Of a stretch of DNA of 64,000 nucleotides, positions 26,213-39,460 are shown in pieces; the first letter of the stretch is position 1; the number at the start of each line of letters is the position of its first letter. Position numbers and translations under genes: made by a program. The notes beneath the pieces are model-generated. The model saw only the letters and a list, made by a program, of their open reading frames with translations. It made no database searches and was not told where the DNA came from. This stretch comes from Thermoplasmatales archaeon. GTDB lineage: Archaea; Thermoplasmatota; E2; DHVEG-1. The stretch is taken from contig JBFYMG010000053.1 in assembly GCA_041305025.1 (NCBI GenBank), forward strand, positions 308-64,307, written 5' to 3'.

Positions 26213-29200
26213 TTAGGTTATTTCATCAATCATTGGGAGTATTTGTTTGTCTTTGAAGCCATGCTGTTCTATTGCGCCAGATGGACATGCGCTTACGCAT
26301 GTTCCGCAACCTTGACACAACCCCTCATTAATTTTTGCATGAACAGTGCGTTTGCCATTTTTTTCTTCAGTTACAGAATCTATAGCTTTGTATGGACAAA
26401 CAGAAATACAAGTCTTACAACCGCTACACAAATCCTCGTTCACAAATGCAATGTTTGGCTCTGCTGCAAGTTTTGGTTGAGATAGAATCGTTGCCGCACG
26501 CGCAGCAGCGGCTTGAGCCTGATAGATAGATTCACCGATAAATTTTGGCGTATGACAATTTCCAGCTAAAAACACACCACGGGTCGAAAAATCAACTGGT
26601 CTCAACTTAACATGTGCTTCAAGGAAAAATCCATCATCATTTAAAGGAACTTTGAGCATCTTTGCTAATGAATCGTTATTCTTATCTGGTTGCAAACCTG
26701 AAGAAAGAACAAGATAATCAGCCGGTATCTTCAATGTCTCCGCAAGCATCGGCTCAAATGTTTTGACAATCAATCCATTCTTTAAATCGATTTCAGGTTT
26801 TTTCTCAGGATCATATTGTATAAACATGACTCCTTTCTCACGAGCATCTTTGTAGAATTTTTCTCTGAAACCATAAGTCATCAAATCACGATATAGAATG
26901 AACACTTCGGCGTGCGGATTTAATTCTTTGATCTTGATTGCATTTTTCACTGCTTGCATACAACATATTCTGCTGCAATAATGCCGCTCATTATCACGAG
27001 ATTCAACGCACTGCATCATTACAAAAGTCTGGCCATCGCAAATATCGTCAGGTCGACTTTCGCTAAGCTTTTTTTCCAGTTCGGATTGTGTTATTACTCT
27101 TGAATCCTTACCATAGTGATATGAATTCGGTTTGTACTCCTCTGCACCAACTGTCACCAAGACCACACCATGATTAAATTTAACCATATCGTTTGGTGTT
27201 TTAATCTCTGAATCGTAGCTCCCAACATAACCGCTGAGCGTTTTCAAAGTTGAGTTCGTGTAAACTTTTATCAAATCGTGTTTTTGAACTTTATCTACAG
27301 TTTCCTTGAGCAACCGACGTACATCTATGCCCTCGACCGTATGATATATTTTATTCAAATAACCACCAAGAACTGGCTCCTTTTCAACTAAAGCTGTTTC
27401 ATAACCCTGATCGGCAAGCGACAATGCTGCAGTCATCCCAGCGATTCCTCCACCGATGACCAAAGCCTTTTGAGTAACTGGAATTTCTGATTCAAATATT
27501 GGTTGTAAAAATCTCGTCTTAGCAACAGTCATTGCAATCAATTTTTTTGCTTTCTCTGTTGCCTCTTTTGGAATATCCATATGAACCCAAGAACACTGTT
27601 CGCGGATATTGGTCATCTCAAGAAGATGTTGATTCAGGCCGGCTTCACGAAGACTCTTCTTAAACAATGGCTCATGGGTGCGCGGTGTACATGCGGCCAC
27701 AATAACTCTATTCAACTTGTGCGTCTTGATCGCATCTGCTATCTTCTTCTGCGTATCCTCGGAGCAAGTATAGATATTGGCCTCTGCAAAAACAACATCA
27801 TCAAGAGAGCCAGCAAACTTGACAAGATCGGGAACGTCCAGATATCCGCCAATGTTGATACCGCAATGGCAAATAAAGACACCAATGCGTGGTTTTTCTT
27901 TAGAAATATCTCTTTCTGAAGGATATTTCTTTTCTTTGACCAAAGTACCTCTGACATCTCTAAGTAGTGCAGCAGCATTTGCGGCAGCAGCTGATGCTTG
28001 CATCACACTTTCAGGAATTGCCTGTGGTTCAAGGAAAGAGCCTGCGACAAAAATCCCAGGTTTTAGAACAACCGGGTCATCAGGAAGTGTTCGAATGAAA
28101 CCAAATTCATTTGCCTCAAAACCAAGATGCTCGATCAATTCATTACGCCGATCCTCAGCAACGCAAAGCCCAACAGACAAAACAACAAGATCAAAAGTTT
28201 CATCTTTAAATTCACCGGAATCATCCTCATATTTTATTGTAAGATCCTTCGTCTTTGGGTCCTCTGCAATCTCAGAGATACGGGATCTCACATACCGCAA
28301 ACCGTGTTGCTTTTTTGCTCGATCAATATACTTGTCAAAATCCTTGCCGTAGGATCGAATGTCTATGTAGAATACTGTCGGTTCAATATCAGCACTGTGC
28401 TCCTTTGCAATCACTGCTTCCTTGGCCGTATACATGCAACACATGGACGAACAATATTCATGATCAACGGATTTGTCGCGGGAACCCACACAGTGAATCC
28501 ACGCAATTTTTTTCGGATGTTTTTTATCACTCAATCTTAAAATCTTTCCCTGAAAAGGGCCAGACGCAGATAATATTCGCTCAAATTCAATACTTGTAAC
28601 CACATTTGCATATCGTTTGTAACCAAACTCGGGTTTCACAACAGGGTCGAATGGTTTAGAGCCAGTCGCGACAATGACTGCACCAACAGACAAATTCAAA
28701 GATTCTGGTTTTTCTTCATGGTTAATTGCACCAGATTTACACTCTTTCACACACTTCATGCAATCGACGCAACCACGATGCTTACCATCGCCTTCCTTAT
28801 CAATCGCATACGCATTGGGAATTGCCTGAGGATAGGGTTTGTAAATTGCCTTTCTTTTAACCAAACCATACTCAAATGCATTTGGAAGCGAAATCGGACA
28901 AACGGCTTCACATGACCCACATGATGTACATTTATTCAAATCAACATACCGCGGTTTTTTCAAAACATTAACTGTAAAATTCCCTGGTTTTCCCTCAATT
29001 TTTTGTATTTCAGCATTTGTCAATAACTCAATATTAGGATGACGTGCACAATCAACAAGTTTAGGAGACAAAATACACATAGAGCAGTCGTTCGTCGGAA
29101 AAGTTTTATCGAGCTGGGCCATCATGCCGCCAATTGCTGGTGTCTTTTCCAAAAGATAAACCTTGAACCCCATGTCAGCAAGATCTAGGGCAGCCTGTAC

Positions 29201-29260
29201 TCCAGCAATCCCACCGCCGACAACGGCAACCGCTCCAATCTTGTCAGATTTATGTGTCAT
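26213..29260 (-). CDS. Double HdrA-like flavoprotein (two HdrA-type FAD modules in one 1015-aa chain)
   Basis: Module 1: VVGGGIAGVQAALDLADMGFKVYLLEK...LDKTFPTNDCSMCIL. An internal HdrA N-domain motif, RIGVFICHCGINIGG, lies at about aa 455. Module 2: LVIGGGIAGMTAALSLADQGYETALVEK. Several CX2CX2CX3CP ferredoxin motifs. Confidence 0.85.
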   Translation of the reverse strand: MTHKSDKIGAVAVVGGGIAGVQAALDLADMGFKVYLLEKTPAIGGMMAQLDKTFPTNDCSMCILSPKLVDCARHPNIELLTNAEIQKIEGKPGNFTVNVLKKPRYVDLNKCTSCGSCEAVCPISLPNAFEYGLVKRKAIYKPYPQAIPNAYAIDKEGDGKHRGCVDCMKCVKECKSGAINHEEKPESLNLSVGAVIVATGSKPFDPVVKPEFGYKRYANVVTSIEFERILSASGPFQGKILRLSDKKHPKKIAWIHCVGSRDKSVDHEYCSSMCCMYTAKEAVIAKEHSADIEPTVFYIDIRSYGKDFDKYIDRAKKQHGLRYVRSRISEIAEDPKTKDLTIKYEDDSGEFKDETFDLVVLSVGLCVAEDRRNELIEHLGFEANEFGFIRTLPDDPVVLKPGIFVAGSFLEPQAIPESVMQASAAAANAAALLRDVRGTLVKEKKYPSERDISKEKPRIGVFICHCGINIGGYLDVPDLVKFAGSLDDVVFAEANIYTCSEDTQKKIADAIKTHKLNRVIVAACTPRTHEPLFKKSLREAGLNQHLLEMTNIREQCSWVHMDIPKEATEKAKKLIAMTVAKTRFLQPIFESEIPVTQKALVIGGGIAGMTAALSLADQGYETALVEKEPVLGGYLNKIYHTVEGIDVRRLLKETVDKVQKHDLIKVYTNSTLKTLSGYVGSYDSEIKTPNDMVKFNHGVVLVTVGAEEYKPNSYHYGKDSRVITQSELEKKLSESRPDDICDGQTFVMMQCVESRDNERHYCSRICCMQAVKNAIKIKELNPHAEVFILYRDLMTYGFREKFYKDAREKGVMFIQYDPEKKPEIDLKNGLIVKTFEPMLAETLKIPADYLVLSSGLQPDKNNDSLAKMLKVPLNDDGFFLEAHVKLRPVDFSTRGVFLAGNCHTPKFIGESIYQAQAAAARAATILSQPKLAAEPNIAFVNEDLCSGCKTCISVCPYKAIDSVTEEKNGKRTVHAKINEGLCQGCGTCVSACPSGAIEQHGFKDKQILPMIDEIT

Positions 29261-29266
29261 ATCTCT

Positions 29267-29932
29267 CTACTCAGTTTTCCGGCTATATCCTTCTTTTATA
29301 GCAATATTTTTAATCGCATTCATCAACTTGGGAATCTCCACGCCTTGAGGACATTGCGTAAAACATCGATGATGCATGGAACATATTTCAACAAACTTAT
29401 TAGAAAACACATTTTCCTTCATTCCAAGTAGTGCATTCTTAATTACTTTCCTTGGCGAATACAAAGAGTCAAGTTCTCGCTCAGGGCAACCTGCAGTGCA
29501 TGTCCCGCAAGAAAAACACTCATACAAATCCTTTCCAGATTCATCTTTTATGAGTTTGTATTTGAAATCAAGATCAAGAGTTTTCTTAGCTTTCTTCCCG
29601 GTCACGTCCTCAGTCTGCTCTTCAAACATCCGCGCATTACGAACCGCATTCATGACTTCTTTGACATTAACCTGTTGCGGACATTTCTCAAGACAACGGA
29701 AATGAGCACTGCAAATCCAGATAAACTCGCTGGATAAAACTTCCTCCTTTAATCCTAGCAATGCCATTCGAATAATCACGCGAGGATTCCACTCAGGTTT
29801 TACATCCATTTCTGGGCAACGAGCAGTGCATGACCCGCATGCAAAACATTTCAAGATACCTTCTCCACCGTCTTCCTTGGCAATTTGAAATTTGAAATTT
29901 GAATCAATTTTGCGGGAGTCAATCACATCCAT
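29267..29932 (-). CDS. Tandem-duplicated HdrC-like iron-sulfur protein
   Basis: 221 aa with two homologous halves. Each half has CxxCGxCTAxCPE followed by ICSxHxRCxxxCPQ. Confidence 0.7.
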   Translation of the reverse strand: MDVIDSRKIDSNFKFQIAKEDGGEGILKCFACGSCTARCPEMDVKPEWNPRVIIRMALLGLKEEVLSSEFIWICSAHFRCLEKCPQQVNVKEVMNAVRNARMFEEQTEDVTGKKAKKTLDLDFKYKLIKDESGKDLYECFSCGTCTAGCPERELDSLYSPRKVIKNALLGMKENVFSNKFVEICSMHHRCFTQCPQGVEIPKLMNAIKNIAIKEGYSRKTE

Positions 29933-29933
29933 G

Positions 29934-38895: not shown

Positions 38896-38901
38896 CCACC
38901 T

Positions 38902-39429
38902 CTATACTTTCTCCATAGCAATTTTTGATAAAACCATTTGAAACTTAGCAGTGTCAGTTGGTTTAGAAATTGCAGGTAAACCCATCTCTTCCCTCTTCTT
39001 TGTTTTACCATCATGAGTTGTTACACTCTGCACATCTTGAATAAGACCAATTGACAAGACAGATTGCAACATCGCTGTATATTTTCCAGGTATTTCTTTA
39101 CCACTTAAAACTGCCAAATTTTTCAATGAGAATAAAATATCAACAGGAGCCACGCGTTGAGGACATCGCTCTTTGCATTTGAAGCAACTCATACATGTCC
39201 AAATAACATCCGAATTTACAAGTTCATCAATCAATCCTCTCTTGAGAAGAGCAACTACCTTGTGAGGCTCTAATTCGAGAAGTTTATGGGCCTCGCATCC
39301 TGATGTACATTTGGCACATTGAAAACAGTAGTCAGAGATTTCATCCCGCAGTTTAGATAGGCGTTCATTGATTTCTCTTCTCAGTTCAGACTGAGACTCC
39401 CCCATAGAAGTCAAATCTATTACGCTCAT
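38902..39429 (-). CDS. hdrC: Heterodisulfide reductase subunit C
   Basis: CFQCAKCTSGCEA and CMSCFKCKERCPQ. The likely start is ATG 39429 (MSVIDLT...). The track ORF starts at GTG 39453. Confidence 0.85.
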   Translation of the reverse strand: MSVIDLTSMGESQSELRREINERLSKLRDEISDYCFQCAKCTSGCEAHKLLELEPHKVVALLKRGLIDELVNSDVIWTCMSCFKCKERCPQRVAPVDILFSLKNLAVLSGKEIPGKYTAMLQSVLSIGLIQDVQSVTTHDGKTKKREEMGLPAISKPTDTAKFQMVLSKIAMEKV

Positions 39430-39446
39430 TATGTACCACTTATAAA

Positions 39447-39460
39447 TTAACACGTGTTAA
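39447..39460. promoter_or_regulatory. Candidate operator: perfect 14-bp palindrome at the hdr operon promoter
   Basis: TTAACACGTGTTAA lies between an AT-rich TATA-like tract (39463-39477) and the hdrC ATG (39429). That is about where the transcription start should fall. Confidence 0.45.

Follow-up and report, generated by a model that had tools for sequence, protein, structure and literature searches.

A conserved eight-gene hdr operon of a Thermoplasmatota archaeon joins canonical HdrABC to two fused HdrA proteins, one of them with an NfnB/GltD-type insert

HdrL, a fusion of the heterodisulfide reductase (Hdr) subunit HdrA with glutamate synthase whose gene is followed by mvhD, was defined in 2009 in Desulfobacterium autotrophicum HRM2 (PMC2702500). 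In Syntrophobacter fumaroxidans, the genes Sfum_0819-0824 encode HdrABC, an Fdh-beta-like iron-sulfur protein, MvhD and HdrL, and their products are abundant in proteomes under sulfate-reducing conditions (PMC5947623). Tandem and fused HdrAs with Cys197/N-domain complementarity are known from anaerobic methanotrophic archaea (ANME), where they were proposed to be their own heterodimeric partners, together with NfnB insertions of about 500 residues in the inserted ferredoxin domain and with FrhB/FdhB paralogs in the HdrA clusters (Chadwick et al. 2022, PMC9012536). A 2025 survey distinguished type II (fused) and type III (GltD-inserted) HdrA, neither of them studied biochemically, and reported type III HdrA clustered with mvhADG in Bathyarchaeota (PMC12054007). 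The fused HdrA of Moorella binds two flavin adenine dinucleotides (FAD), and bifurcating flavoproteins comprise four independent families, EtfAB, NuoF-type, NfnB and HdrA (PMC5861303). For Thermoplasmatota, only generic HdrABC/MvhADG homologs are mentioned in the literature, and Thermoplasmata lineages other than Methanomassiliicoccales are said to possess Hdr without being methanogens (bioRxiv 10.1101/2020.03.09.984617). Here we describe an eight-gene hdr operon in 64,000 nucleotides of DNA (the window, that is, the whole stretch analysed) from a Thermoplasmatales archaeon (GTDB lineage Archaea; Thermoplasmatota; E2; DHVEG-1; NCBI GenBank assembly GCA_041305025.1, contig JBFYMG010000053.1, positions 308 to 64,307 of the forward strand). 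The operon is conserved in a lineage where it had not been described, and most of its types of part are already catalogued.

The eight open reading frames span 26213-39453, all on the minus strand, to which the coordinates of operon features below refer, and they lie exactly where a first, sequence-only reading of the window had placed them. They are, in order, hdrC, hdrB, hdrA, hdrL, mvhD, an fdhB-like gene, a tandem hdrC and a double hdrA. The gaps between them measure 6, 12, 10, 5, 10, 1 and 6 nucleotides, which bears out the claim of eight co-directional genes 1-12 nucleotides apart and leaves no room for independent regulation. Pfam and NCBIfam profile searches, together with sequence comparison with solved structures (PDB), gave the domain calls used here; the profile-based identities agree with the gene list of the sequence-only reading, whose motif counts were also reproduced exactly (five GxGIAG, three LDKTFPTxDC, two ADQGY and three (I/V)GVF(V/I)CHCGINI). 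Shine-Dalgarno-like GGAGG/GAGGT strings stand directly 5' of most of the eight genes, and GC content (0.40-0.42) and strand skew are even along the operon and close to those of the remainder of the window. The sole sizeable non-coding DNA adjoining the genes contains a TATA-like A/T-rich box, AAAAATATATATAG (39464..39477), 35-48 nucleotides upstream of the likely hdrC ATG, which is a putative archaeal promoter of the operon. A scan for sigma-70 promoters and intrinsic terminators over the operon, which is blind to archaeal promoters, gave counts equal to those of shuffled sequences. Spacing and gene order support the interpretation that the eight genes form one tight, conserved unit.

A P-type ATPase gene lies 76 nucleotides downstream of the double hdrA and a Pst transporter upstream of the operon. 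Both were considered as part of the unit and rejected: the window's flanking genes are all missing from a related locus (L022), and other relatives have different genes adjoining the block. Since the flanks are unrelated among relatives, the unit is bounded by hdrC and the double hdrA. Just upstream, two tRNA-3'-end-like direct repeats (GGTTCAAATCC(C)TTCCCC, minus strand) lie 443 nucleotides apart at 39574-39662 and 40034-40105, each adjoining a second short repeat; the pair flanks a 108-residue membrane open reading frame, with a MazE/AbrB-like one just beyond. No intact tRNA was found at these repeats, and tRNA and Rfam scans of the window gave no matches. The repeats may be the trace of an integration event close to the upstream side of the promoter.

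The five HdrA modules of the operon were compared ligand by ligand with the crystallised HdrA, in the numbering of 5ODC_A. The third gene (36055..38010) encodes a canonical four-domain HdrA of 651 residues, which matches 5ODC_A over its full length (E=1.7e-220, residues 3-648 against 5-647) and is 53% identical to this methanogen protein over 339 shared core columns. In the alignment it has all ligand groups, namely the N-domain cysteines, Cys194/Cys197, and the inserted and C-terminal ferredoxin domains; Glu356 and Lys409 are kept, and three of the four positions Cys386/399/403/404 align, with extra Cys nearby. One Cys of its inserted ferredoxin domain is replaced: at residues ~288-310 the second motif is non-standard (HCLFLTRGKCGDEPLCKKAC), with Cys296 changed to Glu and an insertion that alters the spacing. 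The fused proteins share these groups out between their halves. The N-domain cysteines (11, 13, 46 and 71) and the eight-Cys C-terminal ferredoxin domain occur in the C-terminal halves of HdrL and of the double HdrA and are missing from the N-terminal ones; conversely, Cys194/Cys197 and the eight-Cys inserted ferredoxin domain occur in both N-terminal halves and are missing from both C-terminal ones. The Cys386/399/403/404 motif, Glu356 and Lys409 are kept in all four fused modules. LDKTFPTxDC, found in HdrA and in the N-terminal parts of HdrL and the double HdrA, proved to be the stretch just ahead of Cys194/Cys197, and the ADQGY type corresponds to the C-terminal halves, which are without these cysteines.

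The crystal structure shows Cys197 of one HdrA protomer completing the N-domain cluster of the other (PMC9012536). Given this rule and the complementary losses, the best reading of HdrL and of the double HdrA is that each chain forms an asymmetric HdrA dimer by itself, a pseudo-heterodimer which would have a single N-domain cluster, a single exit facing ferredoxin and a single entry facing MvhD. The operon would thereby encode three HdrA dimer-equivalents, namely HdrA itself, able to homodimerise, HdrL and the double HdrA. The sequence-only reading had counted five HdrA-type flavin modules; the number is right, but they are not five equivalent bifurcating units, the halves of both fusions being complementary in their ligands. 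With two flavin domains per chain and complementary Cys197 and N-domain, both fusions belong to type II, and in both the Cys197 half precedes the N-domain half. The N-terminal halves of the two fusions are 55% identical and the C-terminal halves 54%, against about 31% between N- and C-terminal halves, which indicates that an ancestor already fused was duplicated to give two paralogs.

Within HdrL, an HdrA-NfnB/GltD-HdrA fusion of 1505 residues, the Cys197-type half begins at residues 1-161 (35562..36044) with GGGIAG, LDKTFPTNDCAMC and the inserted domain's first ferredoxin motif. It is interrupted at residues 162-650 (34095..35561) by an NfnB/GltD-type insert (PF14691 and PF07992) of 490 residues, which splits the inserted ferredoxin domain between the motifs at residues 117-127 and 657-667. 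Residues 651-944 (33213..34094) resume with the second ferredoxin motif and hold the remainder of the Cys197-type thioredoxin-reductase-like domain, with Glu356, Lys409 and Cys386/399/403/404. The N-domain-type HdrA' half follows (residues 945-1505, 31527..33212), with the four N-domain cysteines, the ADQGY flavin module and a C-terminal 2x[4Fe-4S] ferredoxin domain, and without Cys197 or an inserted ferredoxin domain. The insert contains a Fer4_20 domain with six cysteines, the FAD motif GAGPAG and a second Rossmann motif, GGGNVA, followed by YRR, all invariant across 14 homologs, and it matches 9N5U_A (E=1.7e-105) and the NfnI large subunit 5JCA_L (E=5.8e-79). HdrL holds, as had been proposed for its GltD insert, a complete NfnB/GltD-type FAD/NAD(P)H module. 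The GxGxxA/Arg rule relates the second Rossmann motif to NADPH preference, and GGGNVA...YRR in the insert favours NADPH as the probable substrate. No NfnA/NfnS-type small subunit ([2Fe-2S] plus FAD, NAD+ site) was found in the operon or in the rest of the window. The protein agrees with HdrL as originally defined, having a GltD/NfnB region in an HdrA-like protein and mvhD 5 nucleotides downstream, and also with type III HdrA, the GltD/NfnB module sitting within the inserted ferredoxin domain.

The double HdrA, of 1015 residues, repeats this plan without the insert. Residues 1-450 (27911..29260) form a Cys197-type half whose inserted ferredoxin domain has all eight cysteines and which has neither N-domain nor C-terminal ferredoxin domain, and residues 451-1015 (26213..27910) form the N-domain-type HdrA' half (ADQGY), which has the C-terminal ferredoxin domain and lacks Cys197 and the inserted one. 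Closer curated families such as QmoA/B were tried for its halves, and only HdrA models matched.

Comparison among orthologs bears directly on the insert. In three related loci (L022, L088 and L090), a NuoE/NuoF/[2Fe-2S] NADH-dehydrogenase module replaces the NfnB insert at the same site of the inserted ferredoxin domain. The Cys197-type half is there split into three translationally coupled genes (L022:6627-12748; L088:2306-8415; L090:2418-8442), the first encoding the HdrA N-part with a NuoE-like [2Fe-2S] domain, the second a NuoF-like subunit for flavin mononucleotide and NADH, and the third a Fer2_4 [2Fe-2S] domain with the rest of the HdrA half and the HdrA' half; the remaining operon genes of L022 share 69-89% identity with those of the window. 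That the three frames of L022 might be an HdrL with a frameshift, a selenocysteine or an assembly error was considered and rejected, as they contain complete NuoE, NuoF and Fer2_4 domains with coupled start and stop codons and the arrangement is found again in L088 and L090. The alternation of NfnB and NuoEF at one site thus gives strong comparative support to the prediction that the insert site of HdrL is an NAD(P)H port. No published description of this NuoEF-for-NfnB replacement was found in the literature. Elsewhere in the window (57837-61181, minus strand) there is a free-standing trio of nuoE-like (271 residues), nuoF-like (652 residues) and Fer2_4 (207 residues) genes, HoxEFU/Bfu-like, whose products are 36-57% identical to the module inserted into HdrL of L022.

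A genome scan gave at least 600 matches, and module-level homologs were mapped on the best 80 loci, with genes written as C (hdrC), B (hdrB), A (hdrA), L (hdrL), d (mvhD), F (fdhB-like), CC (tandem hdrC) and D (double hdrA). These best 80 of at least 600 loci are from Desulfobacterota, Syntrophales, Chloroflexota, Acidobacteriota, Bacillota, Planctomycetota, Gemmatimonadota, Asgard archaea and Thermoplasmatota. Full-length HdrL homologs (~1470-1670 residues) are numerous, the nearest named ones being metagenome-assembled genomes (MAGs) of Thermoplasmatota, with Sumerlaeota, Aerophobetes and others more distant. Among the best 80 loci, hdrL-mvhD is a near-universal core, often extended by fdhB-like and/or hdrCB, as in L-d-F-C-B of Syntrophales and Smithella or C-B-L-d of many loci. 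The order C-B-A-C-B-L-d-F occurs in one Bacillota and one Gemmatimonadota MAG (L011, L069), d-F-CC-L-d-F in a Clostridia MAG (L002), and insert-less double HdrAs often accompany hdrL in Chloroflexota. The complete order C-B-A-L-d-F-CC-D was seen, among the sampled loci, only in Thermoplasmatota-type contigs, namely the window, L001 (identical sequence), L089 (unrelated flanks), L082, L083 and L084, and, with the variant L, L022 and L088. Eight Thermoplasmatota-type loci whose flanks are unrelated all keep the L-d-F-CC-D block unchanged, so that gene order is kept among relatives where the surroundings are not; in every such locus sampled, a fused HdrA is encoded on either side of the single mvhD and fdhB-like genes. 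The sequence-only reading had implied an architecture with little precedent. That does not hold for HdrL-MvhD, for the content of the first six genes or for fused and inserted HdrAs, all described before; what appears to be lineage-specific is the L-d-F-CC-D block and the tandem hdrC with its CxxH motif, treated below.

The end of the operon also varies. Nothing redox-related follows the double HdrA in the window, L089 or L088, while mvhD-mvhG-mvhA-hycI comes directly after it in L083 (13730-17036) and L084 (same coordinates), and mvhD, an FdhB-like gene, an FeS protein gene and a FlxA/AsrB-like gene in L090 (13740-17148). Each tail in L083, L084 and L090 brings a second mvhD, and the tail module is interchangeable. 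At the other end, etfA lies directly upstream of hdrC in L082-L084 (position 1-520), and in the window etfBA is found at 5-1731, ~37 kb from the operon; this suggests that Etf and Hdr genes were ancestrally neighbours and became separated in the window. The operon family fuses HdrA with NfnB or NuoF, with Etf adjoining in relatives. The start of the window (5-3785, plus strand) holds etfB, etfA, a DUF6125 gene and a gene of the HpaB/4-hydroxybutyryl-CoA-dehydratase family. Downstream of the operon in L089 (14198-16675) is an adenylosuccinate synthetase gene with an intein carrying a LAGLIDADG endonuclease domain.

The remaining subunits complete a canonical HdrABC and an adaptor set. HdrC (38902..39453) was identified by profile searches, with two CxxCxxCxxxCP motifs and a C-terminal arm extending about 65 residues beyond them. 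Its true start is most probably the ATG at 39429, giving 175 residues, because the public gene call and the orthologs have that length; the GTG at 39453 is less likely, and in this one of the eight genes the earlier coordinates need correction. HdrB (38023..38895, 290 residues) has two CCG domains with both non-cubane-cluster motifs, Cx31-38CCx33-34CxxC, intact at residues 12-82 and 155-234; it scores 84.8 bits with PF02754 and 234.8 bits with TIGR03288 (equivalog cut-off 345). A domain search of all eight products found it to be the only disulfide-reductase subunit of the operon, as had been claimed.

MvhD (31063..31521, 152 residues; PF02662 195 bits, NF045873 VhuD 152.8 bits) is the [2Fe-2S] adaptor. 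The sixth gene (29934..31052) encodes a flavo/iron-sulfur subunit of 372 residues, with PF04432 (54 bits) and a 2x[4Fe-4S] domain, which the sequence-only reading had called FrhB/FdhB-like. This can be made more specific, since it matches over its full length the FdhB chains of Fdh-Hdr complexes (9T1S_M, E=2e-31; 8RVU_E; 7BKB_E), the FrhB and Fsr matches being marginal. No FdhA or FrhA/G catalytic partner was found in the operon. Because FdhB is the partner docking onto MvhD in the Fdh-Hdr complexes (7BKB, 8RVU, 9T1S), the adjacency of the fifth and sixth genes repeats a structurally documented pair. The tandem HdrC-like protein (29267..29932, 221 residues) has, by profile and structure comparison, two HdrC ferredoxin domains. 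Each half has CxxCxxCxxxCP followed by CxxHxxCxxxCP in place of a second CxxCxxCxxxCP, the His being kept in both halves in 117 of 120 homologs, and the C-terminal, HdrB-binding arm of HdrC is absent. In the sampled loci its gene always has the fdhB-like gene on one side and a fused hdrA on the other. Solitary HdrC-like genes that lie upstream of hdrL in bacteria were rejected as its counterparts, as their products have 126-133 or ~385-423 residues and the CxxH motif in none. An assignment to QmoC was rejected as well: only the N-terminal ~100 residues of that model match (91.6 bits against a cut-off of 300), and the protein is too short for the remainder of the 360-position model.

We lean, with a confidence only slightly past even, towards the reading that the eight genes specify one functionally integrated, soluble HdrA-based flavin bifurcating/confurcating system. 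In 5ODC, electrons pass from MvhD to the C-terminal ferredoxin domain and FAD, and from there along two arms, one reaching HdrC and HdrB by way of the cluster of the thioredoxin-reductase domain, the other reaching ferredoxin by way of the N-domain cluster (with Cys197') and then the inserted ferredoxin domain (PMC9012536). On this wiring, each fusion would act as a one-lane HdrA dimer, its N-terminal half supplying Cys197 to complete the N-domain cluster and the inserted ferredoxin domain as a ferredoxin-facing exit, which would be free in the double HdrA and capped in HdrL by the FAD-NAD(P)H module. NAD(P)H would exchange electrons with the HdrL flavin via the insert of the capped domain, as proposed for type III HdrA (PMC12054007), and ferredoxin via the inserted ferredoxin domains of HdrA and the double HdrA. 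The high-potential arm would leave through the Cys386-type clusters to HdrC, HdrB and a disulfide, and the high-potential electrons of the double HdrA might pass through the tandem HdrC, whose four clusters would act as a wire. MvhD and the FdhB-like subunit are predicted to dock as a pair and to offer hydride carriers, F420H2 or some other cofactor, one more port. Overall, the system would reversibly balance NAD(P)H and reduced ferredoxin against a thiol/disulfide couple, and relatives with an appended MvhDGA would add H2 as a substrate. The multi-input bifurcation hub of the sequence-only reading survives here in its NAD(P)H, FdhB-type and ferredoxin ports and its single HdrB, and not in its five-module count of units or in the degree of novelty claimed. 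A doubtful elaboration is a series-wired supercomplex of all eight products, with three HdrA dimer-equivalents sharing one HdrBC site in a two-stage, potential-lowering cascade: electrons from NAD(P)H would be bifurcated in HdrL, and one branch would run via MvhD, the FdhB-like subunit and the tandem HdrC to the double HdrA for a second bifurcation, the pyridine-nucleotide port being a plug-and-play cassette of NfnB or NuoEF type.

Several points weigh against an integrated system. HdrB scores under the NCBIfam equivalog cut-off, there is one mvhD only for three HdrA units, and co-transcription is predicted from spacing and synteny. Nothing DsrC-, LbpA- or CoM/CoB-like was found in the 64 kb, and no biochemical or structural datum for an HdrL-type or Cys197-first fused HdrA was found in the PDB or the literature. 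Moreover, L090 has L-d-F-CC-D with no hdrCBA within 2.4 kb upstream, and the part types recombine freely in bacteria, which indicates that some of the machinery can function with no HdrB encoded next to it. The arrangement in L090 also fits a possible, though clearly less probable, account in which two independent enzymes are merely co-transcribed: HdrABC/HdrL (first five genes, possibly six), coupling NAD(P)H, disulfide and ferredoxin as proposed for Syntrophobacter, and an FdhB-like/tandem-HdrC/double-HdrA enzyme (genes six to eight) sharing or borrowing MvhD, with no disulfide chemistry and perhaps a hydride-carrier:ferredoxin or transhydrogenase-like bifurcation. The content of the first six genes does recur alone in Syntrophobacter and in the Bacillota and Gemmatimonadota loci, as does mvhD-fdhB-like-2xhdrC-fused hdrA in the Clostridia MAG; the tandem HdrC is without an HdrB-binding arm, and relatives that gain a tail module also gain a second mvhD. 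Such a division must nevertheless accommodate the contiguity of L-d-F-CC-D in every Thermoplasmatota-type locus sampled, the flanking of the single mvhD and fdhB-like genes by the two fused HdrAs and the absence of room for separate regulation, and the second enzyme, if bifurcating, would have no obvious high-potential acceptor.

The tails of L083 and L084 raise another idea, that the operon supplies the electron-handling half of a system coupled to a hydrogenase, in which a relocated [NiFe] hydrogenase, Mvh-type or other, docks via MvhD and NAD(P)H and reduced ferredoxin are confurcated to H2, or the reverse. A peptide fermenter must dispose of both reductants, Bathyarchaeota have type III HdrA with mvhADG (PMC12054007), and a [NiFe] large-subunit C-terminus (RAYDPCISCSTH) with hycI is present in the window at 63410-64000. 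We find this improbable, however: no hydrogenase genes adjoin the operon in the window, L089 or L088, the window has no second mvhD, and the edge fragment, only 33% identical to MvhA of L083, lies near the HoxEFU-like trio, which suggests another class of hydrogenase. The sequence-only statement that no hydrogenase genes lie inside the operon is correct, the large-subunit fragment and hycI being at the window edge. Least probable by far is a classical methanogen-type CoM-S-S-CoB heterodisulfide reductase for methane metabolism. The first three genes are clear hdrC, hdrB and hdrA homologs, and HdrA has the 53% identity to the methanogen protein noted above (339 core columns); yet HdrA, HdrB and HdrC all score under the NCBIfam equivalog cut-offs (HdrA 633 against 1400), the 64-kb window has no mcr, methanogenesis, DsrC, CoM/CoB or F420 biosynthesis genes, and the same type of cluster is found in sulfate reducers, Chloroflexota, Acidobacteriota and others. 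The nearest named relatives, too, are Thermoplasmatota MAGs, and Thermoplasmata other than Methanomassiliicoccales are described as lacking methanogenesis (bioRxiv 10.1101/2020.03.09.984617).

An integrated bifurcating/confurcating system would suit a host that is probably an anaerobic, peptide-fermenting Thermoplasmatota archaeon, having to match its NAD(P)H pool to its pool of reduced ferredoxin. The window provides C25 and S15 peptidases, an aminotransferase, an ADP-forming acetyl-CoA synthetase, EtfAB and an AbfD/HpaB-family enzyme. HdrL-type or fused HdrA is found in at least 600 sampled genomes over many anaerobic phyla, with no biochemical or structural characterisation found, and this operon presents it as a compact, strongly conserved set of canonical HdrABC and two fused HdrAs, one capped by an NAD(P)H module and one open to ferredoxin. 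The orthologs constitute a natural experiment, in which NfnB and NuoEF alternate at one site and the tail is none, Mvh or Flx-like, and their comparison predicts which HdrA arm serves which port. The operon bears on electron routing in single-chain HdrA heterodimers, on the thiol/disulfide couple of non-methanogens and on the balance between NAD(P)H and ferredoxin in benthic peptide-fermenting Thermoplasmatota. If the series-wired reading were true, the machine would fuse two of the four bifurcating families, and possibly three with the EtfAB adjacent in relatives.

Other genes of the window deserve brief mention. Three gingipain-like C25 peptidases, two of them with PKD domains, are encoded on the plus strand at 8906-11290, 13332-15596 and 19771-21585, and an S15 X-Pro dipeptidyl peptidase at 16288-18432 on the same strand; such a C25 and S15 set is typical of benthic protein-degrading Thermoplasmatota. 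An archaeal AMP-salvage cluster (51958-55644, plus strand) comprises ribose-1,5-bisphosphate isomerase (IF-2B family), the type III RuBisCO large subunit and an AMP/nucleoside phosphorylase. At 44258-48046 (plus strand), a histone-deacetylase-family gene precedes one for an 890-residue ADP-forming acyl-CoA synthetase with a C-terminal GNAT domain, the architecture of Pat-like protein acetyltransferases, and the two may be an acetylation/deacetylation pair. At 63410-64000 (minus strand), a HycI-type maturation protease gene is preceded by the end of a [NiFe] large-subunit gene, with the C-terminus RAYDPCISCSTHYLDVKFV*, that runs off the window edge; the exact hycI was found only on contigs of 3.9 kb or less, of which L085 yields 110 residues of the large subunit, the portion compared above with MvhA of L083.

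Among known systems, HdrABC/HdrL of Syntrophobacter comes nearest, its gene content being that of the first six genes; its function is uncharacterised there too, an NADH-linked confurcation to DsrC having been proposed. Unlike the Syntrophobacter and Desulfobacterium loci, the window is archaeal, has no sulfate-reduction context and adds a tandem His-containing HdrC and an insert-less fused HdrA, and the order is C-B-A-L-d-F instead of the L-d-F-C-B of Syntrophales-type loci. Type II/III HdrAs of ANME and methanogens have in common with HdrL and the double HdrA the complementary loss of Cys197 and N-domain, the site of the ~500-residue insert, Glu356 and Lys409 in both halves, and MvhD and FdhB/FrhB paralogs in the clusters. 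In contrast, the N-domain half comes first in ANME HdrA3/4 and Moorella HdrA, HdrL joins both modifications in one chain, no FdhA-like molybdopterin subunit is present, and the host is no methane metaboliser. HdrC, HdrB, HdrA and MvhD of the operon match their namesakes in MvhADG-HdrABC (5ODC) and Fdh-Hdr(-Fmd) (7BKB, 8RVU, 9T1S), and the sixth product matches FdhB; the operon lacks MvhA/G and FdhA and adds two fused HdrAs and the tandem HdrC. Measured against methanogen HdrABC, the first three products agree in domains and ligands and not in equivalog scores, and of the MvhADG hydrogenase module only mvhD is in the operon. QmoABC differs in its separate QmoA/B and in QmoC with a membrane HdrE-like cytochrome b domain. 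The insert of HdrL is homologous to the large, NADPH-binding subunit of NfnAB/NfnSL (4YLF, 5JCA), which has the bifurcating FAD, including its Fer4_20 domain, but is embedded in HdrA and not free-standing, and it has no small-subunit gene. FlxABCD-HdrABC of Desulfovibrio and MetFV-HdrABC-MvhD of Moorella are likewise NAD(P)H-linked Hdr systems with an MvhD-like adaptor in a non-methanogen; the operon, in a window with no FlxA-type (NAD_binding_1/DHODB) or MetF/MetV genes, would take in NAD(P)H through its NfnB-type insert instead.

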